Below are positions 8,330 through 31,990 of a stretch of 32,000 bases of DNA, piece after piece. This DNA comes from Chamaesiphon minutus PCC 6605 (GTDB taxonomy: Bacteria > Cyanobacteriota > Cyanobacteriia > Cyanobacteriales > Chamaesiphonaceae), in NCBI RefSeq assembly GCF_000317145.1, contig NC_019697.1:5785889-5817888 (forward strand), read 5' to 3'. Under the pieces are notes generated by a model. The model did not search any database. It was not told the origin of the DNA and worked only from the letters and a program-made list of their open reading frames with translations. The position numbers and the translations under genes are program-made. Numbering within the stretch: the stretch's first letter is position 1; each line of letters opens with the position of its first letter.

Positions 8330-9562
8330 TTAACCATGAGAACGTTGTGAAGTATCGACATTAAATGCTTGTGCTAACACCGTTAACTCTTTAGCTCGAA
8401 GCACATAAGGTTCGAGTTGACTTGTTTCCCATCCGGTTAATACTTGCATGGCTTCGATCGACAATCCTCTGATTAGCATCTCTACACACCAAGTCGCTTG
8501 AGCTTGTTGGATCGTTGGTGGTTCGCCTGTGGGTGCTAATAGTTCGCTGTTGGATTGTTGCCACAGTTGGTGCAAATCTGCTTCAGTTAAGGCGTTTCCA
8601 TCTGAATTGATGAATAGAGATGGATGACTATCTTTACGGCTTCTGAGCCATTGTGTGAGGGGATTTTTGAGATACGAGCCATAGCGTTTGCCCAGAATCC
8701 ATTGATTGACAGGGACTTGACGCGCTGCACCGTGAGTTATTTGCAATAATTGGCGATCGCTACTACTGAGATGATTCGATCGAGTTAAGGAGATAATCTC
8801 GTTTGCGCTCAACCCCGCGCCAAATAATACATAAACCAGTGCGTAAGTTTGCAGACTATGTTTTTTGGCTTGCTGAAGGATTTGATGGACAATTGATTCG
8901 GGTAAATCTTGCTGAATTATCCGATTTTCGGGCACATTAGTTGCAGTTAATTGACGGCTATTTTCAGCCACTGCACCAGTGACAAATAATGCTACCACTC
9001 GATCGAGAAAATCGGATCGATCGCGCCACAAGCCATGAAATTCACTAGTTAATTCGATCGTGGCATAGCCGAACAATAATGTATGCAATAAGCTGGTTAA
9101 TTGCTCGATCGGTAGTTGCAACTCGGATTGAGATTCGCCGATATTGGTTTTTAAATACTTAGCGACGCGACGATTGGCGCGATCGAAACTGCGTCCCAAT
9201 CCTTGACGATTTTCGGTGGAATATTGCCCCGACTCACCCACGAGCGATCGAATTACAGCGGGAGTTTGTTCTAATGCTTGGAGGCAGGTAGTGGCATAGG
9301 CTCTAAGCATTTCTGCCAAACTACTCGCTGGCGGCAATTCGGTTGTCAAACTTTGTCCCAATTGCGCGAACACATCGGCATCTTCAATTACGGCGAGCAA
9401 TAGCCCATGTTTATTCCCAAATTGGCGAAATAAGGTGACTTCATTCACCTGTGCTAGTTCGGCAATCTGCTTAGTAGTCGTCTCATTTACCCCCTGGCTG
9501 GCAAATAATTCGATCGCTGCCTGGATAATTTTTTGACGGGTCAGATTGCGGGAAGATGGCAT
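8330..9562 (-). CDS. TetR/AcrR-family regulator fused to a degenerate tyrosine-recombinase-like C-terminal domain
   Basis: N-terminal HTH: RQKIIQAAIELFASQGVNETTTKQIAELAQVNEVTLFRQFGNKHGLL. The C-terminal ~190 aa follow the integrase catalytic-domain layout (GAGLSANEIISL, GAARQVPVNQ, SLFINSDGNALTEADL, CVEMLIRGLSIEAMQVLTGWETSQLEPY), but the catalytic Arg and His positions are substituted. Confidence 0.8.
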   Translation of the reverse strand: MPSSRNLTRQKIIQAAIELFASQGVNETTTKQIAELAQVNEVTLFRQFGNKHGLLLAVIEDADVFAQLGQSLTTELPPASSLAEMLRAYATTCLQALEQTPAVIRSLVGESGQYSTENRQGLGRSFDRANRRVAKYLKTNIGESQSELQLPIEQLTSLLHTLLFGYATIELTSEFHGLWRDRSDFLDRVVALFVTGAVAENSRQLTATNVPENRIIQQDLPESIVHQILQQAKKHSLQTYALVYVLFGAGLSANEIISLTRSNHLSSSDRQLLQITHGAARQVPVNQWILGKRYGSYLKNPLTQWLRSRKDSHPSLFINSDGNALTEADLHQLWQQSNSELLAPTGEPPTIQQAQATWCVEMLIRGLSIEAMQVLTGWETSQLEPYVLRAKELTVLAQAFNVDTSQRSHG

Positions 9563-9767: not shown

Positions 9768-9857
9768 CCTAAAGCCCAAAGCCTAAAACCTCAAAACCAA
9801 AGCCTAAAGCCTAAAGCCTAAAGCCTAAAACCTAAAACCTAAAACCTGAAACCTAAA
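9768..9857. repeat. STRR-like heptamer array (CCTAAAG / CCTAAAA, about 13 units)
   Basis: cctaaag cccaaag cctaaaa cctcaaa accaaag cctaaag cctaaag cctaaag cctaaaa cctaaaa cctaaaa cctgaaa cctaaa. The array ends 2 nt before the desC ATG. The unit is the reverse complement of the GGCTTTA arrays at 20221 and 30334. Confidence 0.95.
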
Positions 9858-19258: not shown

Positions 19259-20221
19259 ATGAACAAAGCTGTTATCGCTAGTATCGTCGCAGGCGGAATG
19301 TGGGGAAATATCGTGGCTCCGTCAGTGCCACCAGCAATGGCTCAAAGCCTTCCTAGCGTCCAACCAACAGCAACAACCCCAAATCCGATCGGGATCGAGT
19401 TATTAGATGCTGGAGCCGAACCTCGGCGAGAATTGAAATTTACACCAGCAATTAATAGTAAACAGACGATGACGATGACCATGGACATGTCGATGGAGAT
19501 GACCATCGGTGAAACACCGATTCCCAAGACACCGCTTCCCAAAATGGTCTTGAATGTGGATTCTACCGTCAAGCGTGTCGATCCTTCGGGCGATATTCAT
19601 TGTCAGTTTGCCTATAGCGATCTCCAAGCTATCGGTAATCCCGATACCGCACCAGAATTGTTGGCAGCCATTCAAAAGAGCCTCAAAAGTCTAGTCGGCA
19701 TCAAGCTAGACATGGTAATTGGCGGGAACGGACAGGTTAAGTCTAAAAAACTAATTATCCCCAAAACTGTCGATCCAAAACTGAAAAATCTTCTCGAACA
19801 ATTCGATCGATCGATGTCCGATCTGTCTACCCAACTACCGACAGAACGGGTTGGATTGGGTGCTAAATGGCGGATAAATAACTCGATAAAGATCTCTGGC
19901 ATCAATTTAGTGCAGTCGGCAACCTCTGAAATTGTCGAAATCGACAACATGGGAGTGAAAATTAAAACGCAGATGACCCAATCCGCGCCCCCACAAGACT
20001 TGAACATTCCAGGCACCACCCCAGACGTCAAAAGTCGGTTAACTTCGATGGCATCTAGCGGTGAAGGTAGCTATCTGCTACGCTTCAACTCGCTCTTACC
20101 CGTCACAGGCAAGTTCGCCGCCAAGACTGATAGCAAACTGTCCGTCCAATCTGGCTCCAAGGAACCACCCACCGATATGTCTACCAAAATCTCGATCGAT
20201 CTGGATTTTGATAGTAAGTAG
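19259..20221 (+). CDS. Exported hypothetical protein
   Basis: 320-aa ORF with an N-terminal signal-like segment MNKAVIASIVAGGMWGNIVAPSVPPAMAQ and a Met-rich patch MTMTMDMSMEMT. I recognise no family. A strong terminator follows the gene. Confidence 0.6.
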   Translation: MNKAVIASIVAGGMWGNIVAPSVPPAMAQSLPSVQPTATTPNPIGIELLDAGAEPRRELKFTPAINSKQTMTMTMDMSMEMTIGETPIPKTPLPKMVLNVDSTVKRVDPSGDIHCQFAYSDLQAIGNPDTAPELLAAIQKSLKSLVGIKLDMVIGGNGQVKSKKLIIPKTVDPKLKNLLEQFDRSMSDLSTQLPTERVGLGAKWRINNSIKISGINLVQSATSEIVEIDNMGVKIKTQMTQSAPPQDLNIPGTTPDVKSRLTSMASSGEGSYLLRFNSLLPVTGKFAAKTDSKLSVQSGSKEPPTDMSTKISIDLDFDSK

Positions 20222-20307
20222 GCTTTAGGCTTTAGGCTTTAGGCTTTAGGCTTTAGGCTTTAGGCTTTAGGCTTTAGGCTTTAGGCTTTAGGCTTTAGGC
20301 TTTAGGC
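20221..20307. repeat. STRR-like heptamer array (GGCTTTA, about 12 units)
   Basis: A perfect ggcttta tandem array starting at the last base of the stop codon of the preceding gene. The small palindrome GGCAGCG-t-CGCTGCC follows at 20305-20319. Confidence 0.95.
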
Positions 20308-20730: not shown

Positions 20731-22023
20731 ATGTTGCAAGGTAGTGAAAAATCAGTCGAGCTTAGCTTTAAAGATCTAATTCTAGAACTAAAAAAGATTA
20801 AAACACAGTCTTTGAGTGGTAACTTGACTGTAAAAGTAGAAACCCACCCCAATTGGATGTTCTCATTTCGATTGGGACGTTTGGGCTGGGTCGATGGTGG
20901 CATTGAGCCAATTAGTTGTTGGCAAAGAAATTTAACTTTGGCCCAACTCGATTTACCTCCAGAGAAGCTAGCAGAAATTAATAATCCTAATAAGACTTCT
21001 TTAGATTCGCACGTTTTAGCAGAATTATTAGTTGAAGAACTAATCGATCGCGATAAGTGTGCTAATTTAGTTGCCAGAATGACTATCGAAAGTTTATTCG
21101 ATATCATTCAGTTCAGTCAGCATAGCGGCAATCGCTTATCTTATCAATTTAGTCAGATTGGAGCTAGTAATAGTCAGCTAAATCTAATTTTACCACTACT
21201 TGAAATCGAACCGATTCTGACTAAATCGATTCAAACATGGCAAGAATGGTCGAATGTAGGATTGGCAGCCTACGCGCCTAGTTTATTTGCCATTGTCTCT
21301 AAATCACTCGATGTTACTCAATTAGCAAACAACCCCGATTTGCATCATACCGTATTGTCGATCGATGGCAATCGTTCGCTTCGTAGTTTGGCAGCCAACA
21401 GTCGCCAATCGGTAATTAATTTCACGAGTACGCTGCTGCCTTTACTGCGTGCGGGTTTTATTAATTTATCGAGCCAATCTAAATCGAGAGTAACTAGAAT
21501 TAGTAGCTCAGATCTTACTACTAGCCAATTAAGCGGTCACCTCAGCAACCAACTGAGCAACCAACTAAGTAACCAACTAAGCAATCAAGTCGGCGATCGA
21601 TCTGGTATTCCCCAAAATCCACCCTTAGCAGCAATCCCATCAGAAAAACAGAGTCCATTAATTGCTTGTATTGACGATAGTATCTTGATTTATCAATCTC
21701 TCGAACGGATTTTGACAGAGCATGGCTATCGTTCGTATGGAGTGCAAGATCCGCTCAAAATTATGCCTAGCTTGATTAGAAACAAACCAGATTTTATTTT
21801 CTTGGATTTGTTGATGCCCATAACCAATGGGTATGAAGTCTGCGAACAAATTAGAAAAACGCCCAGTCTCAAACATATTCCCGTCATTATCTTGACTGGT
21901 AAAGATGGGTTGATCGATCGAATGAGATCGAAAATGGTTGGCGCGACTGGCTTTCTAGGTAAGCCAGTAGATGCAGATTCAGTTTTAAAAATGATCGATA
22001 AATATCTTGTTATAGGTAAATAA
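20731..22023 (+). CDS. PatA-type response regulator (N-terminal PATAN/DUF4388 domain plus C-terminal REC), PixG/PilG-like
   Basis: 430 aa. The C-terminal REC has PLIACIDDS, the phospho-acceptor context DFIFLDLLMP, IPVIILTGK and GFLGKP. The N-terminal ~250 aa have the layout of PatA-family regulators. It is the first gene of a tax-type cluster. Confidence 0.85.
   Translation: MLQGSEKSVELSFKDLILELKKIKTQSLSGNLTVKVETHPNWMFSFRLGRLGWVDGGIEPISCWQRNLTLAQLDLPPEKLAEINNPNKTSLDSHVLAELLVEELIDRDKCANLVARMTIESLFDIIQFSQHSGNRLSYQFSQIGASNSQLNLILPLLEIEPILTKSIQTWQEWSNVGLAAYAPSLFAIVSKSLDVTQLANNPDLHHTVLSIDGNRSLRSLAANSRQSVINFTSTLLPLLRAGFINLSSQSKSRVTRISSSDLTTSQLSGHLSNQLSNQLSNQLSNQVGDRSGIPQNPPLAAIPSEKQSPLIACIDDSILIYQSLERILTEHGYRSYGVQDPLKIMPSLIRNKPDFIFLDLLMPITNGYEVCEQIRKTPSLKHIPVIILTGKDGLIDRMRSKMVGATGFLGKPVDADSVLKMIDKYLVIGK
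21541..21588 (+). repeat. Intragenic 12-nt tandem repeat encoding (LSNQ)x4 in the PatA-type regulator linker
   Basis: ctcagcaaccaa ctgagcaaccaa ctaagtaaccaa ctaagcaatcaa. Confidence 0.85.
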
Positions 22024-22418: not shown

Positions 22419-22943
22419 ATGAGTAAAATTATCGATCGAGCGTCACCATCTTCGAGCAGCCAACAACTGTTGGCTCGTCAATCTGAATCTGATGCCCAGG
22501 AGCGGTTTCTCGGTTTTACGATCGGCGATGATTTAAATGCTTTGATTCCGTTAATCGATCTTCAGGCGACTATCAAAATTTTATTGTCAGAAATTTTGCC
22601 AGTACCACAAATGCACGAATCATTACTGGGCATTATTAATTATGGTGGTAAAGCTACTTGGGTACTAGATTTAGCACATCTGATGGGTGGCAATGGTTAC
22701 CTCAAGACCCCAGAGTTGACAACTGGAATGGGGATGTTATTTCAGATCCACAATGAAACGGTCGCCATGTTAATCGATCGAGTCGGGACGATCGAAACAT
22801 ACAATTTCCAACAATGCTTGCCGATTGGTGAAACCATGTTTACCGAGCAAATGCGGCTATTTTTAGCTGGCTATTTTATCGATGAGAAACAACAGTCGCG
22901 AGTAGTTATCGATCTTCAGCAGGTAATTCGCGCCATTATTTAG
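22419..22943 (+). CDS. CheW-like coupling protein (PixI/PilI-like)
   Basis: 174 aa. RFLGFTIGDDLNALIPLIDLQATI, LLGIINYGGKATWVLDLAHLMG and AMLIDRVGTIE fit the CheW fold pattern. Confidence 0.85.
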   Translation: MSKIIDRASPSSSSQQLLARQSESDAQERFLGFTIGDDLNALIPLIDLQATIKILLSEILPVPQMHESLLGIINYGGKATWVLDLAHLMGGNGYLKTPELTTGMGMLFQIHNETVAMLIDRVGTIETYNFQQCLPIGETMFTEQMRLFLAGYFIDEKQQSRVVIDLQQVIRAII

Positions 22944-23028: not shown

Positions 23029-26000
23029 ATGTTAAAAAATATCTTTAGTTCGGCAGACGATCGCTCCGACAAAGCTACCGATCCTCTCAATCCTGTCACT
23101 CTACCTTCACAACAACCGATGTCTAATCCAGATCGCGCTGCCATGACTAGCACTAATACCAAGCAACAATTATTATCGCTACTTCAAGAGACTCAGGCTA
23201 AGCTTGAAACCGCCAATAGTCCCAACTCCGAATCACTGCGCCAAAACATTCGCAAAGCCAGAGAATTAGCCGGATTTTTGACCGTACCGGGTACCAATCC
23301 GCAGCCGCAGAGCGCGCCTGCATCTGCGGGAATCGACCCCGAAAAAATTTATCAAATCGCAACTAGAATCAGACAGGCTACATTACCGCTAGCGGCATTC
23401 AATAGTGCGGTTGCTGATATCAAAGCATTGCTCAATGCCGATCGCGTCCTGATTTACCAGTTGACTGGAGCTGGCATGGGTCGGTCGATCGCTGAAGCCG
23501 TCCAAACAGGCTTGACACCCACCCTCAATACCGAAATCCCCCAAATTGGCTTTGGCTTCGAGCAACTTACCGACGAGCGCACCCAACGGACGATCGCGTT
23601 AATTAATAGCGAAACCAGCCCTTACCAAAAGCAAATTTTGGAACAGTACCAGGTGCAGGCGACAATTGCCGTACCGATTTTAATTAACGGTTACTCGGCA
23701 GCTACCGATAGCTATAGCTTGGGTAGAGTCTGGGGTTTATTAGTCGTCCATCAATGCGATCGCCCGCGCATGTGGTCGGAAGCGGAAACCACTTGCCTAT
23801 CGCAATTATCTCTAGAACTGACGCTGGCAGTCCAGCCCAATCAACCCCTGCTGCAATTATCCCAACGCCGCGACCTGTTAGCTGCGATCGAGATCGAAGC
23901 ACAGGAATTGATGCAGACTACCCTCGACAATATCCGCCACAACCTCCAAGCCGATCGGGCGATGGTTGTCGCTTACAATCCAGACTGGAGCAGTACTGTT
24001 ATTGCCGAATCTGTCGGCGTCAACTGGGCCAAAGCGGGCACCTCACTAGATTTAGATTACTCGATTAATAACGAGAATTACAAGCCTTATTACGTCGTCA
24101 ACGACATTCAAGCCAAAGGATTCGATCGCTGCTTATTAGAATCCCTCGAACCGCTGCAAATGAAAGCGTACATCGTGGTTCCAGTCTTGAAAAACAACCA
24201 ATTGGTCGGCATGTTGGGCATCTACCAAAACTCTGGCGCGCGCAACTGGCAAGAGTCCGAACTCAATGCTATGCTCGAATATGCCAAAACATTTAGCTTC
24301 CCGATCCAGCAAACCACCAGCCGCCGTCTCGCCCAGTTTCAGACCAAAAAAATGGAGCAGCGGCTGCAACGGGAACGGGGACTCTCCAAACTCCAAGAGC
24401 GGCTCCGCAGTGCTAAAGATGAGAAAACTGTCTTTCAAGTCGCCACTCAAGATGGACGCAAATTGCTCGAAACCGATCGATTAGCGATCTATCAGTTCGA
24501 TCCCGATTGGGGCGGTCGCTTTATCGCCGAATCCGCCGCACCGGGATGGGTAGACTTGATCGAAACCGTCCATATCGTCCAAGATACCTTTCTTCAACGC
24601 ACCCAAGGCGGTCGGTACAAAGATGGCGAATGTTTTGCCGTCGATGATATCTACACCGTCGGTCACCAAACTTGTCACGTCCAACTATTAGAACAGTTTG
24701 AAGCTCGCTCTTATATGCTCGCGCCGATCTTTGGTGCCGATCGCAAACTGTGGGGACTAATTGCGGCTTATCAAAATGCCCACGTCCGTAAATGGCAAGA
24801 AGAAGAAGTCGAAACCCTGCGTCAAATGGGTCTGCAAGTCGGGATTGCCATCGAGCAGATCGATTATATCAAGCAACTCCAAAAACGTGCCGATCAAGAG
24901 CAAACCATCAACCGGATTACCGAGCGCATCCGCCAATCGCTAGTCGTCGATGATGTCTTCGCTAGTGTCGTTCAAGAAATCCGCCAAGCCTCCAAAGCCG
25001 ATCGCGCGGTTGTCTATCAGTTTAATGAAGATTGGAGCGGTCAAGTTATCGCCGAATCTGTCGGGAGTGGCTGGGTATCGCTGTTAGTCGAGCAAGCTAA
25101 AGATGAAGTCTTAGCAGGCAACCGAGCGACTAACGATCGCTGCATCCTCCGCAAATGGGCGCAAAAAGATATCACCGAAGAAGATACTTACCTCCAAAGT
25201 ACCAAAGGCGGTAAATATGCCCAAGGTTCCAAATCGACCGCAGTTGATGATATTTATGCCAAAAACTTCCCCGATTGCTACATTCAGTCGCTCGAAAAAT
25301 ATCAAGCCAAAGCTTATATCCTCGCACCGATTTTCAAAGGTGGTAACCTCTGGGGTCTGCTCGGTGTTTACCAAAATGATGCACCGCGCATCTGGGATGA
25401 CTCCGAGCGTTCGGTCATCGAACAAGTCGCCCTCCAAATTGGCGTTGCGCTGCAATTAGCTGAATACCTCGAACGCGTTCGTACTCAAGAACAGGAACTC
25501 TCCCAAATTGTCGATCGAGAGCGCGCTAACCGCCAAGAATTGGAACAAGAGGCTCTGCGAGTCCTCAAAGCGATCGGACCCTCCTTCCGAGGCGATTTAA
25601 CCGTCCGTGCGCCGCTATCTGAAACCGAGATCGGCACGATCGCCGATGGTTACAATACCACCATCCAAAGTCTGCGCGAACTAGTGCGCCAAGTTCAGAC
25701 CGCCGCGATTAGCGTGAGTGAGACTTCGAGCGAAAACAACCTGTTGGTTAACAATCTCTCGGCTCAAGCACAACAAGAACTCGAACAACTCGATCGCGCC
25801 TTGGTGCAAGTAGATCTGATGGCCGCTTCTAGTAAAGAAGTTGCCGAATTTGCCCAAAAAGTCGAACAAGTCGTCCAATCGGCCAACCGCACCGTTCAAA
25901 ACGGTGACACGTTGATGGAAAGCACAGTGGAAGAGATTCTGGAAATCCGCTCCACCGTATCGACAACTGCTAAGAAAATCAAACGTCTGGGTGAAACCTT

Positions 26001-26526
26001 CCAGAAGATTTCTAAAGTTGTCAACCTGATCGAAAACTTCGCCACCCAAACCAACCTACTCGCACTAAATGCTTCGATCGAAGCCACCCGTGCGGGTCAA
26101 TACGGTAAAGGTTTCGCAGTGGTCGCCGATGAAGTTCGCTCCCTGGCTTACCAATCTGCCAATGCAACCACCGAAATCGAACGCTTAGTAGATGAAATCC
26201 GGATCGACACCAACGACGTTACCGAAGCCATGGAAATCGGGATCGCTCAAGTCGTCCAAGGCACCAACTTAGTCAACGAAACCAGACAGAGCCTCAGCGA
26301 GATCGTAGTTGCCACTGGCCAGATCAGCGAACTCGTCAAAGCCATCAGTCAATCTGCGGGTACTCAAACCAAACAGTCCCAAAAACTGAGCGAAGCAATG
26401 ATCGACGTCGCCACGATCGCCAATCTCAGCTCCGACAGCGCACTCCAAATCTCCGAATCTTGTCAACAGCTCATTGCCACTTCGCAAGTGTTGGAGACTA
26501 GCGTGAGCCGATTTAAGGTGGACTAG
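23029..26526 (+). CDS. Soluble methyl-accepting chemotaxis protein with four GAF domains (PixJ/PtxD-like putative cyanobacteriochrome photoreceptor)
   Basis: 1165 aa with no hydrophobic TM segment. GAF-like blocks lie at about nt 23431-23833, 23944-24300, 24466-24858 and 24994-25455. A HAMP-like linker follows ([28 protein letters not shown]). The C-terminal MCP signalling domain contains [40 protein letters not shown]. Confidence 0.9.
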
Positions 26527-26568
26527 GGAATAGGGAATAGGGAATAGGGGATAGGGAATAGGGATTAG
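26524..26568. repeat. Tandem heptamer array (TAGGGAA, about 6 units)
   Basis: tagggaa tagggaa tagggaa tagggga tagggaa tagggat. The array begins with the TAG stop codon of the MCP gene. Confidence 0.95.
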
Positions 26569-26660
26569 ACAAATAGGACGGACGCTAGCGTCCTAAACCT
26601 AAAGACTCAAACCTAAAATCCTATCCTCTATCCCCTAAGTATCCCTAACCTCTAACCCTT

Positions 26661-26695
26661 CCCCTATCCCCTATCCCCTATCCCCTATCCCCTAA
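26661..26695. repeat. Tandem heptamer array (CCCCTAT x5), inverted relative to the 26524 array
   Basis: cccctat x4 then cccctaa, ending on the base before the CheA ATG at 26696. More degenerate copies extend upstream to about 26618. Confidence 0.95.
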
Positions 26696-29600
26696 ATGAC
26701 CACCGACGATCTAGATTTTCAAGAGTCACTCGATCGATACTTTGAGATCGAAGCGGCGGAATTATTACAAACGATCGAACAAACACTCCTGAGTCTGGTT
26801 CAAGAAAAAACGATCGAGCGCGTCCATACTCTCATGCGTGCAGCGCATACGATTAAGGGTAGTGCGGCCAATTGTGGTTTCAAAACGATCGAAACGATCG
26901 CCCATCACCTCGAAGATGTCTTCCAGGCACTATATCCACCCGAATTAGAGATCGATCCCGAACTGGGACTGCTCTTAATGGAAGGTTACGATTGTCTGTA
27001 CGATCCTTTGAGCGCGTTGTTGGCGGGAGTTCCCTACGACGAAGCCGCGACCCTCGAGCGAACGGCAGCATTATTTGCGAGGTTACAAACTCATTTAGGC
27101 GACTTTTTTGGGCGAGAGACACCATTACCGACCGCCGCCGAACTCGGTTTTGATGTAATCGGCTCGATTTTTACCGATAGCATCCCACAAGATCTCGAAG
27201 ATCTCTCGATCGCGATCGCCAGTCAAAATGTGGGTAGGGTAAAAGAGAGTCTCAACTCGTTAGCCGAATTTTTATTGGAGTTGGGTGGCTCTTATAGTCT
27301 CCCTGGTATTGCGGCGATCGCCAAGACGACGCTAGCCGCTGTAGAGCGTCATCCAGGCAGAGTGCTAGAGCTAGCACCGATTGCCTTGGCCAATTTTCAA
27401 CAAGCCCAAATCGCGATCGTCGGTGGCGATCGATCGGTTGGTGGTGAAGTATCATTTGAATTAGCAGCTTGGGGTGACTCTCAGACCCTGACAACAGCTC
27501 CAGCCACAGATGAATCTAGTTCCGCCGAATGGTTATCGTTAGTCGATAACGACACTACCACCGCCAAAGCCCCGACTGCCGAATCAAATGCTTCAGAATG
27601 GCTCTCCTTAGTCGATAACGATACTACCACAGCAGCCACAACTACGAGCGATGCGGCTGCTTCGGAATGGTTATCGTTAGTCGATAACGACACTACTACC
27701 GCCGAAACCACGACTGCCGAATCAAATGCTTCGGAATGGCTCTCCTTAGTCGATAACGATACTACCACCGTAGCCACAACTACGAGCGATGCGGCTGCTT
27801 CGGAATGGTTATCGTTAGTCGATCGTGACACCACTCCCGCCGAAACCACGACTGTCGAATCAAATGCTTCGGAATGGTTATCGTTAGTCGATAATGACAT
27901 TACTCCGGCTGAAACTACAACTACGAGCGATGTGGCTGCTTCGGAATGGTTATCGTTAGTCGATAACGACACTACTCCCGAAATTTACGACGAACCGCAA
28001 GAGCACGCTCGATTGCATCAGATCGTCGATGCCGATTTAGAGATTGTTGAGATTGGAGCGTTCGAGCCAGATCGGACAGAATATCTCATCGAAGCAACCG
28101 ATAGCTCGCAATTGGCGCATATCTCTACACCCAACTCCCAGCTAGCTCTGACTACTCAATCGGGAATCGATCGCATTTTCCAATCGATTTGGCTCGGACA
28201 GCTAGAAGCCACTGCCGAAGACCTCAATCCGCCAGCACCAGAGCGGATGGTACCAGAGCGCGAAGCAGCACCCGATGCGCTAGTAAGCGTGCGCGTAGCC
28301 ACAGTCCAACTCGAACGGCTCAGTCATGCCATCGGCGAACTGACGATCGACGATAACCAACAATTCCTCCGCGCCGAGCAATTACAAAGACTCGCCCAAT
28401 CTACCGTCGAACAATACCGTCGCTGCGAGCAAAAGCTGCGTCTAGTCAGCGATTGGGCCGATAAAAATGCCGCGATCGACGAACGCCAAAAACTGGCATC
28501 GCGGCGCAAACAATCTACCAAAAATAAAACTAAAAAAGGCAAAAAAGCAGCCAATGAGATCGTCGCTCATTTCGATAGTCTCGAATTAGATGTCTATAGC
28601 GACTTGAGCATCTCGATCCAAAATCTCACCGACGAGCTGGCCGAACTCGGCCTCAAGGTAGGGAATTTGGCAGAAATGACCCAGAGAGCGCGGATGACCT
28701 TGGGCAAACGCAAGCAAATCCTCGCTGATGCCCAGTCGGAACTATTTGAAGCCAGAATGGTGGAAATTGCTGGCGTCCTCAATCGCTTCCCGCGCTTGCT
28801 CCAGCAAATGGTCGCCTCTCATCGCAAACCCGCCCAATTACAACTGATCGGTAGCGAAGTTTCGATCGATAAAATTATCGCCGAAAAACTCTACGATCCT
28901 TTACTCCACCTAGTTAGGAACGCCTACGACCACGGCATCGAATCGCCAGAAATTCGTGCCAGCCAAGGTAAAGCCCCGATCGGACAATTGACGATCCAAG
29001 TCTATCACCAAGGCAACCGCACCAAAATCGAAGTCAGCGATGACGGCCAAGGTTTGAACTGGGATAAAATTCGCCAGCGCGCGATCGATATGCACCTACT
29101 GCAAGCCAGTCACGCGGCAACCGAAGCCGAGTTGGCCGAAATTATGTTTGCTCCCGGATTTTCGACCGCTGACAAAGTTAACGATCTTTCCGGTCGCGGC
29201 ATTGGTTTAGACGTCGTCCGCGACCGAATTGGAGCCTTACAGGGCACGATCGACGTGCGCTCTGTCGCAGGTCAAGGCACCACCTTTGTGATGCAATTCC
29301 CCCTCAATCTCACCACCACTCGGTTGATGATTTGTGAGTCCCAAGGCTTCGTCCATGCCCTGCGAGCGGATGCCATTTCGCAAGTATTACTGCCCTCACC
29401 CGATCGAATCGTCTCCCAGTCCTTGCTTTCAGACAAAGATTCTTCCACATTTTTACGCTGGGGCGAAGGAGCCGAACAGAAATTAATTCCTATTTATGCA
29501 GTCAATAGTCTCCTCGACTATCGGTGCCAAATCGTCGCTGGCGATCTTAGTGCCAGCACGCTGTTCCCCATCCAATCCAAACACAGCACCAACGCCTTAC

Positions 29601-30334
29601 TGTTACTAGAAATCAACGACGATCGCATCTGTCTCGAAGTCAGCCGCATCTTGATGGAGCAAGAACTAGTTGTCAAATCGCTCGGTCAAACCTTTGAATT
29701 GCCTAATTATATTCAAGGTTATAGCGTCCTGGGCGATGGCAGTCTGACACTCGCCCTCGATCCTGTAGAACTCATCGCTCGCGTTAAAGCCAGTAACAAC
29801 CCTGTTACTCAGTCTATCCCCGCGAAATTGCCTACCCTACCAGCAACCACCCAACCCGCATTAGCTCCAGCCAGCGATGTACCCTTGCCCGAAGAAGTAG
29901 CATCAACCCTCGGCGATCTCAACAGCCACAATGCCGCTTCCACTGGGCGACAGCTACAAGTCTTAGTCGTCGATGACTCCCTGGTTCAACGCCAAAGCTT
30001 GGCTCGCTCCCTCACTAAAGCTGGCTGTCAAGTTATCCAAGCCAGCCACGGACGCGAAGGCATCCTCCGACTCCAAGAACATCCCCGCATTCGCCTGGTA
30101 GTTTGCGATATCGAAATGCCCCAAATGAATGGATTCGAGTTTCTCAGCTATTGTCGCCAAGATCCCAAATTCTCTCAAATTCCGATCGTCATGCTCACCA
30201 CGCGCGGCGGTCAAAAACACCGCGATCTCGCTATGACTTTAGGAGCTAAAGACTACCTTACCAAGCCCCAATCCGATCGAGATTTATTAGACATCATCGC
30301 GACACTAGCACAGCCTAGTGAAGTAGGAGTCTAG
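26696..30334 (+). CDS. Hybrid CheA-type histidine kinase (Hpt, repeat linker, dimerisation, HATPase, CheW-like, REC), PixL/PilL-like
   Basis: 1212 aa. Hpt AAHTIKGSAANCG (His51), P3-like VRVATVQLERLSHAIGELTI, N-box LLHLVRNAYDHGIE, G1 DDGQGL, G2 GRGIGLDVV, an internal CheW-like domain, and a C-terminal REC (VLVVDDS, VVCDIEMPQMNGFEF, DYLTKP). Confidence 0.9.
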   Translation: MTTDDLDFQESLDRYFEIEAAELLQTIEQTLLSLVQEKTIERVHTLMRAAHTIKGSAANCGFKTIETIAHHLEDVFQALYPPELEIDPELGLLLMEGYDCLYDPLSALLAGVPYDEAATLERTAALFARLQTHLGDFFGRETPLPTAAELGFDVIGSIFTDSIPQDLEDLSIAIASQNVGRVKESLNSLAEFLLELGGSYSLPGIAAIAKTTLAAVERHPGRVLELAPIALANFQQAQIAIVGGDRSVGGEVSFELAAWGDSQTLTTAPATDESSSAEWLSLVDNDTTTAKAPTAESNASEWLSLVDNDTTTAATTTSDAAASEWLSLVDNDTTTAETTTAESNASEWLSLVDNDTTTVATTTSDAAASEWLSLVDRDTTPAETTTVESNASEWLSLVDNDITPAETTTTSDVAASEWLSLVDNDTTPEIYDEPQEHARLHQIVDADLEIVEIGAFEPDRTEYLIEATDSSQLAHISTPNSQLALTTQSGIDRIFQSIWLGQLEATAEDLNPPAPERMVPEREAAPDALVSVRVATVQLERLSHAIGELTIDDNQQFLRAEQLQRLAQSTVEQYRRCEQKLRLVSDWADKNAAIDERQKLASRRKQSTKNKTKKGKKAANEIVAHFDSLELDVYSDLSISIQNLTDELAELGLKVGNLAEMTQRARMTLGKRKQILADAQSELFEARMVEIAGVLNRFPRLLQQMVASHRKPAQLQLIGSEVSIDKIIAEKLYDPLLHLVRNAYDHGIESPEIRASQGKAPIGQLTIQVYHQGNRTKIEVSDDGQGLNWDKIRQRAIDMHLLQASHAATEAELAEIMFAPGFSTADKVNDLSGRGIGLDVVRDRIGALQGTIDVRSVAGQGTTFVMQFPLNLTTTRLMICESQGFVHALRADAISQVLLPSPDRIVSQSLLSDKDSSTFLRWGEGAEQKLIPIYAVNSLLDYRCQIVAGDLSASTLFPIQSKHSTNALLLLEINDDRICLEVSRILMEQELVVKSLGQTFELPNYIQGYSVLGDGSLTLALDPVELIARVKASNNPVTQSIPAKLPTLPATTQPALAPASDVPLPEEVASTLGDLNSHNAASTGRQLQVLVVDDSLVQRQSLARSLTKAGCQVIQASHGREGILRLQEHPRIRLVVCDIEMPQMNGFEFLSYCRQDPKFSQIPIVMLTTRGGQKHRDLAMTLGAKDYLTKPQSDRDLLDIIATLAQPSEVGV
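27515..27980 (+). repeat. Intragenic tandem repeat: seven 69-nt units (one of 72 nt) encoding SEWLSLVDNDTT... within the CheA linker
   Basis: GAATGG starts at 27527, 27596, 27665, 27734, 27803, 27872 and 27944. Two unit subtypes alternate through the first four copies, giving a 138-nt super-repeat. Confidence 0.95.
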
Positions 30335-30461
30335 GATTTAGGCTTTAGGCTTTAGGCTTTAGGCTTTAGGCTTTAGGTTTTAGGCTTTAGGCTTTAGGCT
30401 TTAGGCTTTAGGCTTTAGGCTTTAGGCTTTAGGCTTTAGGCTTTAGGCTTTAGGCTTTAGG
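30334..30461. repeat. STRR-like heptamer array (GGCTTTA, about 18 units)
   Basis: ggattta ggcttta ... with one ggtttta variant. The array starts on the last base of the CheA stop codon. It has the same unit and orientation as the 20221-20307 array. Confidence 0.95.
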
Positions 30462-30525: not shown

Positions 30526-31062
30526 ATGACTTCCTCCCTCCTATCCCAACGGTTAGCTAGTAATAACGAAGATGGCAATACGATCGACGCGATCGTGTTT
30601 GCCCTAGCCGATATCGAACAGACACCAATGGCCAACTACCTGTTTGCGATGCCTGTAGCAGCCGTGGAAAAAGCGATCGTCTATCCATCAGAGCGAGCAG
30701 TGCTCAGAGATGGGATTGGCATCATGAATTTGGGTGCAGAAACTTTGACAATTGTCGATTTACGCCAAAAATTCGCCTCGATCGATCCGCTCCAGGATTC
30801 TTCCAAATTTCTGATCTTATTTCATACCCACGCTGGCGAATTGTGCGCTCTTCCCATCAAAGATGCACCAGTATTAATGGACATCGATCCCGCCATGATT
30901 CGATCTCTTCCGCTAGCTTATCGCGAAGTCAATCAGCTTAGTTTTATCTCCCAAATGGCGATCGTCCCGCAAGAAGGTAACCTAGCACCATTACAGATTC
31001 TACTCATTGGCTTCGACCCGATCGATCCAAACAGATCGAACAGATCCAGTCACTTGAATTAA
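30526..31062 (+). CDS. Second CheW-like domain protein
   Basis: 178 aa. YLFAMPVAAVEKAIVYP, GIGIMNLGAETLTIVDLRQKF and ELCALPIKDAPVLMDID fit a divergent CheW-like domain. The gene lies directly after the CheA gene. Confidence 0.65.
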   Translation: MTSSLLSQRLASNNEDGNTIDAIVFALADIEQTPMANYLFAMPVAAVEKAIVYPSERAVLRDGIGIMNLGAETLTIVDLRQKFASIDPLQDSSKFLILFHTHAGELCALPIKDAPVLMDIDPAMIRSLPLAYREVNQLSFISQMAIVPQEGNLAPLQILLIGFDPIDPNRSNRSSHLN

Positions 31063-31956: not shown

Positions 31957-31990
31957 GGCTTTTGGCTTTTGGCTTTTGGCTTTAGATTTA
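31957..31990. repeat. Tandem heptamer array (GGCTTTT, about 4 units)
   Basis: ggctttt ggctttt ggctttt ggcttta gattta, near the window end. Confidence 0.85.

Follow-up and report, generated by a model that had tools for sequence, protein, structure and literature searches.

In the cyanobacterium Chamaesiphon minutus PCC 6605, a PixL-type CheA-REC hybrid histidine kinase carries seven tandem copies of the peptide EWLSLVD in the linker that follows its phosphotransfer module. The gene lies in a 32,000-nucleotide stretch of DNA (hereafter the window; contig NC_019697.1, positions 5,785,889 to 5,817,888). The repeated motif is a real, strongly selected and apparently undescribed feature, and with modest confidence it is best explained as a multivalent array of docking sites, each a short linear motif (SLiM), in the disordered linker of a kinase that has no P2 domain. 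The original prediction, made from the window alone, knew of no description of the motif. This is consistent with full-text literature searches, in which the motif strings returned nothing relevant and the papers on PixL and on CheA architecture made no mention of linker repeats.

The array is regular in the window. Exact copies of EWLSLVD begin at amino acids 278, 301, 324, 347, 370, 393, and 417 of the kinase, so that the motifs span residues 278-423, and their first nucleotides are at 27527, 27596, 27665, 27734, 27803, 27872, and 27944. The spacing is 23 amino acids in five intervals and 24 in the sixth, exactly as had been claimed. A degenerate DNA pattern for the motif, GAATGGYTNTCNTTAGTCGAT, has seven matches, against none expected from 100 shuffles. 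Five copies are encoded as GAATGG TTA TCG TTA GTC GAT, and units 2 and 4 as GAATGG CTC TCC TTA GTC GAT; the differences among the seven copies within the motif are synonymous only, while the spacers fall into two types at the protein level, ..TAESNAS and ..TTSDAAAS. The comparison of units thus bears out the two codings, the silent differences and the two kinds of spacer that had been described.

Does this codon usage demonstrate selection on the peptide? Tandem Repeats Finder detects the 69-nucleotide period that had been reported (72% matches, score 389), but a period of 138 nucleotides scores higher (89% matches, score 699). Identity is 83-91% among the A units (1, 3, and 5) and 96% between the B units (2 and 4), while A and B units share 64-72%; unit 6 has the motif codons of an A unit together with the spacer of a B unit. 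The array is therefore organised as (AB)(AB)(AB')A, a higher-order repeat of 138 nucleotides. It follows that the two codon versions represent one old A/B split that was copied later, and that the window by itself, where there is in essence a single independent comparison of A with B, argues only weakly that the peptide is selected. The codon argument of the original prediction loses most of its force here, and its conclusion stands on the orthologues instead.

The orthologue set consisted of 20 Chamaesiphon genome loci and five metagenome contigs that span the linker. The motif, in the form [E/D/Q]-W-L-S-L-[V/I]-[D/E], is present in 20 of 20 genome loci, in three to eight copies spaced 20-32 amino acids apart. 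The five contigs, which are all that a DNA pattern for two motifs retrieved from metagenomes, are without exception PixL orthologues and carry two to five copies. In Chamaesiphon, the proposed search of orthologues for EWLSLVD-like repeats was thus positive throughout, with between two and eight copies. Among 100 distinct units harvested with a permissive regular expression, W is found in all 100 and the L, S, and L that follow in 99 each. The next position is V in 82 and I in 10 (V/I 92) and the one after it D in 73 and E in 21 (D/E 94); the residue preceding W is E in 61, D in 29, and Q in seven (97 together). The positions flanking the motif hold only about 1-1.6 bits of information. WLSL is retained even in units whose spacers are wholly unrelated (L020, L004, and P0001).

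The peptide is fixed, and the DNA that encodes it is not. Across the 100 units, Leu is encoded by five different codons at one of its two positions and by six at the other, Ser by all four TCN codons, and variation is concentrated at the third codon positions of the + frame. Between genomes, the six core codons show a proportion of synonymous differences (pS) of 0.78 and a proportion of nonsynonymous differences (pN) of 0.086 (Nei-Gojobori), the latter slightly inflated by path averaging over TTA<->CTC changes. In the flanks the corresponding values are 0.71-0.72 and 0.58-0.62, and pS is saturated in motif and flanks alike. Because pN in the motif is low relative to the flanks, the codons are saturated and the spacers are divergent, the comparison between genomes shows the peptide, and not the DNA, to be under strong purifying selection.

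The orthologues also show the spacers and the copy number to turn over fast by in-frame duplication and loss of units. For example, L012 has five copies and L018 eight, because one internal unit is repeated four-fold; the window has seven copies and its counterpart in C. polymorphus (L001) eight; and L013 has five and L015 three. In close pairs that differ in copy number, the flanks are 89-97% identical. Terminal units tend to stay put, and it is the internal units that turn over. Outside the array, six-frame translation of the window and 21 loci, about 260 kb in all, revealed no further instance of the motif.

The linker that holds the array is extremely acidic. Residues 262-440 have a net charge of -33, consist to 77% of T, S, A, D, E, N, and P, and contain almost no basic residues. 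In an AlphaFold2 monomer model of a chimera joining residues 1-120 of PixH, the CheY-like protein of the locus, to residues 262-520 of PixL, with an alignment made up of 109 PixH homologues, the predicted local distance difference test (pLDDT) score was 90-96 for PixH and 30-36 for the whole array, which was modelled as coil, rising to 39-51 past the array. A single-sequence prediction of PixH with a two-unit array reached a pLDDT of 43 and was uninformative. Composition and model together support the prediction that the array segment is unstructured and disordered, in agreement with the earlier proposal of a disordered linker.

Two further elements of the linker are conserved in the Chamaesiphon orthologues. 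The stretch from DLEIVEIGAFEP to TEYLIEA (residues 447-467) forms a weak beta-hairpin in the AlphaFold2 model, with a pLDDT of 39-49. Close to the end of the linker is the single-copy motif SGIDRIFQSIW, which in the form (S/P)IDRI(L/F)QSIW is distributed far more widely than the array and is found even in distant PixL-type kinases that have no array. Variants such as SPIDRILQSIW and SAIDQILHSIS were seen in P0010, P0013, P0051, and others, and the motif may be a universal docking element of this class of kinases.

What might seven copies of a conserved peptide do in such a linker? The array has the attributes expected of SLiMs, namely a near-invariant short core, a disordered setting, and a conserved island among variable flanks. 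In the explanation favoured here, seven equivalent motifs with the core [E/D]-W-L-S-L-[V/I]-[D/E] would be displayed about 23 residues apart on an acidic tether that joins the phosphotransfer module (the Hpt domain and its extension) to the dimerisation/ATPase core. Each motif would serve as a docking site, probably folding into a short amphipathic segment once bound in a groove of its partner; the sites might bind several copies of one partner or, by avidity, a single multimer. A bound partner would thereby be kept in the vicinity of the Hpt domain and of the receptor-kinase array, the motifs would replace, or add to, the role of the folded P2 domain of classical CheA, and changes in copy number would tune valency. 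The multivalent recruitment of a partner, as originally proposed, is plausible.

Which protein would be recruited? Tentatively, and within the docking explanation, PixG and PixH, the substrates with REC domains, rank first, although a role for them is less likely than not. They lead because a kinase without P2 has to serve two regulators in trans and because the motif resembles known CheY-binding peptides. In Synechocystis, PixL phosphorylates PixG as well as PixH (PMC11181946). The kinase's own domains come next as candidates, followed by a protein of the pilus motor or of a polar scaffold whose gene lies elsewhere. The extra CheW, which the original prediction had listed among the possible partners, is rejected as an array-specific one since it also adjoins PixL genes that have no arrays.

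A side observation concerns PixH itself. Compared with 109 homologues, the PixH proteins of the Chamaesiphon clade have six clade-specific residues: I6, K19, E70, Y81, D94, and S103. Positions 81, 94, and 103 fall in the beta4/alpha4/beta5 peptide-binding region (by our own offset to the numbering of E. coli CheY). The clade-specific residues co-occur with the WLSL motif, a pattern that is confounded by phylogeny and serves as a lead only.

Several points weigh against a docking array. AlphaFold2 placed none of the seven units on unphosphorylated PixH, in a monomer model that lacked alignment depth for the linker; beside PixH, none of the units became helical or gained in confidence in this weak, single in silico test. 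None of the genes in the locus tracks the array specifically, the second CheW being found beside array-less PixL genes as well. About two-thirds of the wider kinase family have no obvious repeated motif in the linker. Finally, the harvest with a regular expression, permissive as it was, under-counts strongly degenerate units, and such units were found by eye: EWLALSD in L005, EWGSLVD in P0004, and EWLAFAE in P0001. One apparent gap of 54 amino acids between motifs holds the degenerate unit EWLALSD.

How does the array compare with known systems? Like the P2 domain of classical CheA (PF07194), it lies on a flexible linker between the Hpt/P1 and dimerisation domains, and its proposed role, to raise the local concentration of the partners of the kinase, is the same. 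The P2 domain, however, is one folded alpha/beta domain, whereas here there are seven 7-residue motifs that are predicted to be coil. No match to the P2 profile was found anywhere in the kinase at E<=0.01 (Pfam), and with no predicted fold either, profile and model indicate that the array is not a P2 domain. The original prediction had placed the array at the P2 site of a kinase without P2; the absence of P2 is upheld, but a conserved extension of about 140-170 residues intervenes, so that the array comes after the Hpt-plus-extension module and before the dimerisation region, and not directly after the Hpt domain.

The CheY-binding peptides of FliM (N-terminal, LSQAEIDALL) and CheZ (C-terminal, DDLLDSLGF) are acidic and amphipathic and fold on the alpha4-beta5-alpha5 face of the REC domain. 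The EIDALL segment of FliM, with the pattern E-Phi-x-small-L-Phi (Phi, hydrophobic), resembles EWLSLV, and the CheZ peptide resembles array motifs of other lineages such as DLLDLFD and SLDDLFG; these likenesses are a lead only. In contrast to the array, these peptides occur as a single terminal copy and belong to the motor or the phosphatase, not to the kinase. The array may work in the manner of P2 or of a CheY-binding peptide, though its assignment to either group is not supported.

The pentapeptide NWETF, by which receptors tether CheR and CheB, is likewise an acidic motif, x-W-x-x-Phi, that a component of the chemosensory array carries on a flexible tether. It differs in lying at the extreme C-terminus of the receptor, in having Phe at position 5, and in being single-copy, while the motif described here is internal, has Leu, and is present seven times. 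An NWETF-type pentapeptide is rejected on the grounds of location, fifth residue, and copy number, and the 32-kb window encodes no CheR or CheB. In eukaryotes, SLiMs of a similar kind include the W-acidic motifs that are ligands of the tetratricopeptide repeats of kinesin light chain, and the LC3-interacting region/Atg8-interacting motif (LIR/AIM), [DE]x[WFY]xx[LIV]. These share the acidic Trp-x-x-Leu core, the disordered setting, the frequent occurrence in multiple copies, and conservation in the form of islands within linkers that evolve fast; neither the proteins nor the receptors are related, and the analogy is one of mechanism only.

To the same class of kinases belong the multi-Hpt kinases of the type IV pili (Tfp) class, such as Pseudomonas aeruginosa ChpA, and other cyanobacterial Tfp CheAs. 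They too lack P2, end in a REC domain, control type IV pili, and have a dimerisation region that is extended; multiplied N-terminal elements are a recurring theme among them. However, the papers on Tfp-class kinases describe multiplied folded Hpt domains and not arrays of short motifs in a linker (PMC10782961; PMC11181946). The N-terminal region and linker are unexplored in published work on PixL (PMC11181946).

An unlikely, though not far-fetched, alternative to the docking array is an intramolecular regulatory tether, in which the motifs would bind PixL's own Hpt module, P4, P5, or REC domain. In this way they would hold back the phosphotransfer module or set its position, in the manner of an auto-inhibitory element or a pseudo-partner, without recruiting any other protein. 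Such a role is in keeping with the location of the array, which has the Hpt module and the kinase core as its direct neighbours on either side, and with a locus that has no array-specific partner gene; in addition, PSLEDVFG, a linker motif of related kinases, is closely similar to HxLEDVF(K/Q)A of an Hpt helix, a hint that an internal interface may be mimicked. However, seven equivalent sites exceed the need of one intramolecular site, and nothing like EWLSLVD was found in PixL or in the other Pix proteins. For the latter reason the idea that the array mimics a segment of another Pix protein is also rejected.

Rather improbable is the notion that the WLSLV segments act as stickers between flexible spacers, clustering or condensing PixL at receptor patches without any defined folded partner. 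The regular multivalent layout, the low-complexity spacers, and the variable valency are all as expected of stickers and spacers. The net charge of -33 and the near absence of basic residues, however, disfavour homotypic association, and four near-invariant consecutive residues, one of them Ser, are a tighter constraint than generic stickers require.

Equally doubtful is that the count of seven is an artefact of assembly, in which the 138-nucleotide repeat was collapsed or expanded; the motif would still be real. This is suggested by the contigs of relatives that end inside the array in short-read metagenome-assembled genomes (MAGs), by the 96% identity of the B units to each other, and by near-identical metagenome PixL genes with two, three, and five copies. 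On the other hand, the seven units of the window differ among themselves by 3-12 of their 69 nucleotides, so that the assembly path is resolvable. Moreover, intact arrays occur on long contigs (eight copies in L018, 4.75 Mb, and five in L012, 206 kb), and seven falls inside the natural range of two to eight.

The short-read MAG contigs that break inside the array are those of P0003, P0004, P0006, L011, L014, L016, and L021, and the broken genes give rise to annotations such as 'partial Hpt domain-containing protein'. The near-identical metagenome genes are L025, L027, and L028, whose N-termini are identical over the first 55 residues shown and which carry two, five, and three copies of SEWLSLVDDE, respectively. 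The difference between them reflects either population-level copy-number polymorphism or assembly collapse.

There is very little to recommend the view that the array is a neutral product of slippage in a tolerant linker, with a motif that has no function. Whole units are indeed gained and lost, and adjacent units within a genome are often near-identical; but the motif codons are synonymously saturated while the peptide is fixed (pN 0.09 in the motif compared with 0.6 in the spacers), and units whose spacers are unrelated still retain the motif. The diversity of codons among orthologues also excludes recent horizontal copies of one sequence. Hardly credible, finally, is a signal that lies in something other than a disordered + strand peptide, be it a beta-solenoid-type repeat domain, an open reading frame (ORF) on the opposite strand, or an RNA or DNA element: unit length varies over 20-32 amino acids within single proteins and AlphaFold2 returns coil, which argues against a solenoid; the 163-residue antisense ORF that overlaps the array (27481-27972) is rejected, since its frame, stop-free in 14 of 20 orthologues, has stops in the other six and Pfam gives only sub-threshold repeat noise; and variation is concentrated at third codon positions of the + frame.

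Are arrays of this kind found beyond Chamaesiphon? Among 146 cluster representatives of kinases with the same N-terminal module, the W-containing motif occurs only in the Chamaesiphon-clade P0043, with seven copies. Other lineages have different repeats at the same position in the linker: SDLLDLFDV or SEFLDFL in five to six copies (P0048), PSLSWSLFDD in five (P0047), EELLNIVDD in two (P0011 and P0021, Crocosphaera), EELLTTVDSF in two (P0019), DSAFVSLDD (P0080), GFFEDIPEE in six (P0165), and, in the multi-module kinases P0040-44, P0056, and P0061, PSLEDVFG or PSLDDVFG in five to eight. A hydrophobic 6-mer is present in at least two copies in 33 of 101 complete linkers and in at least three copies in 18. 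The large repeat-free share of the family implies that an array is an accessory feature and not a core requirement; as far as the linker sequences tell, arrays are recurrent but accessory in this class of kinases.

EWLSLVDD, DLLDLFD, and ELLNIVDD share the pattern acid-PhiPhi-x-PhiPhi-acid. The presence of motifs of the same type in other lineages suggests a shared groove-binding mode. A bolder generalisation, which is speculative and for now rather doubtful, would be that Tfp-class cyanobacterial CheAs use lineage-specific, copy-variable arrays of acidic-hydrophobic motifs instead of a folded P2 domain, recruiting several response-regulator or pilus-motor molecules per kinase; EWLSLVD would be the Chamaesiphon instance, and DLLDLFD, SWSLFDD, and PSLEDVFG instances from other lineages. 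If this were true, the gain and loss of units would serve evolution as a dial that sets the stoichiometry of phototaxis signalling. The PSLEDVFG motif deserves a separate remark: it differs little from the sequence of the Hpt helix, HxLEDVF(K/Q)A (HHLEDVFQA at residues 70-78 of the kinase in the window), and may be a mimic of that helix.

The array bears on how CheA proteins without P2 find and hold their response regulators, and on the position of the phototaxis kinase relative to the pilus motor. It may also exemplify the evolution of valency through in-frame turnover of repeats, and the analogous arrays at the same position elsewhere may point to a general principle of recruitment for this class of kinases. 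A strictly conserved, easily mutable peptide in several copies provides a direct experimental handle.

The host protein is a PixL/Tfp-class CheA-REC kinase by its domains, its phosphorylatable histidine, and its operon. Pfam matches comprise Hpt (residues 15-87, E 1e-13), HATPase_c (735-871), the CheW-like P5 domain (963-1029), and Response_reg (1089-1201). The phospho-accepting His51 lies within the Hpt signature HTIKG, confirming the assignment of that residue in the original prediction. Homologues of the kinase carry the annotation PixL, and those of the CheY-like protein the annotation PixH (JGI names). The closest genomes to the window are all Chamaesiphon.

At E<1e-30, 290 cluster representatives match the N-terminal 261 residues as a single unit. 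The Hpt domain and its extension thus form one module of about 260 residues, which is present in two to five copies in some kinases (P0040-P0046). Solved structures of CheA P1 match residues 8-120 only, and no solved structure matches the extension. Synechocystis PixL has been described with two Hpt domains; Pfam calls one in the kinase of the window. A long dimerisation region has been noted for cyanobacterial Tfp-class CheAs by Berry et al. (PMC10782961).

The locus is a phototaxis locus of the Pix/Tax1 type (Table 1). The order of the PatA-type response regulator, CheY, CheW, and GAF-containing methyl-accepting chemotaxis protein (MCP) genes is repeated in L022, where the orthologue of the PixG-like gene has a PatA_N domain, and synteny is conserved. 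PixH is 85-98% identical across Chamaesiphon. In the window, no obvious peptide-binding scaffold is encoded.

Table 1. Coordinates of the array, its host kinase, and the neighbouring pix-type genes (positions in the window)
Feature	Position	Strand	Remarks
PatA-type response regulator (PixG-like)	20731..22023	+	Pfam REC, aa 311-422; candidate partner/substrate
CheY-like PixH, 120 aa	22026..22388	+	Pfam REC; homologues annotated PixH; candidate partner/substrate
CheW (PixI-like)	22419..22943	+	Pfam
MCP with four GAF domains (PixJ-like photoreceptor)	23029..26526	+	Pfam
PixL-type CheA-REC hybrid histidine kinase, host of the array	26696..30334	+	1212 aa
N-terminal module, Hpt (His51) and conserved helical extension	26696..27478	+	aa 1-261
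Acidic Thr/Ser/Ala-rich linker, predicted disordered	27479..28210	+	aa 262-505
Array of seven (S/A)EWLSLVD motifs	27524..27964	+	unit starts 27524, 27593, 27662, 27731, 27800, 27869, 27941
Post-array conserved element DLEIVEIGAFEP	28034..28069	+	conserved in Chamaesiphon orthologues
Post-array conserved element TEYLIEA	28076..28096	+	conserved in Chamaesiphon orthologues
SGIDRIFQSIW, single-copy linker motif	28160..28192	+	aa 489-499; AlphaFold2 helix, pLDDT ~50
Second CheW-like protein, downstream of the kinase	30526..31062	+	Pfam

Other repeats are found in the window. Two perfect or near-perfect heptamer arrays of TAGGCTT, which resemble short tandemly repeated repetitive (STRR) sequences, start exactly at the TAG stop codon of a gene: one of 12.7 copies (20219-20307) at the end of the ORF at 19259-20221, and one of 18.6 copies (30332-30461) at the end of the kinase gene. 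Further heptamer arrays lie at 1317-1363, 2669-2714, 9768-9857, and 31957-31983. The region between the MCP and kinase genes (26505-26700) contains opposed heptamer arrays, GGGAATA in seven copies (26520-26568) and CCCTATC in 10.6 (26620-26694). These pair into a long hairpin with a minimum free energy of -76.1 kcal/mol, compared with -52.2 +/- 4.1 for shuffles (z = -5.8). The hairpin between pixJ and pixL may be an element of transcript processing, attenuation, or stability.

Within the PixG-like protein, the linker between the PATAN and REC domains contains four copies of LSNQ with a 12-nucleotide period (21544-21588, residues ~272-286). Elsewhere in the window, a 410-residue ORF on the minus strand (8330-9562) has a TetR_N DNA-binding domain at its N-terminus and a phage-integrase (tyrosine recombinase) domain at its C-terminus.

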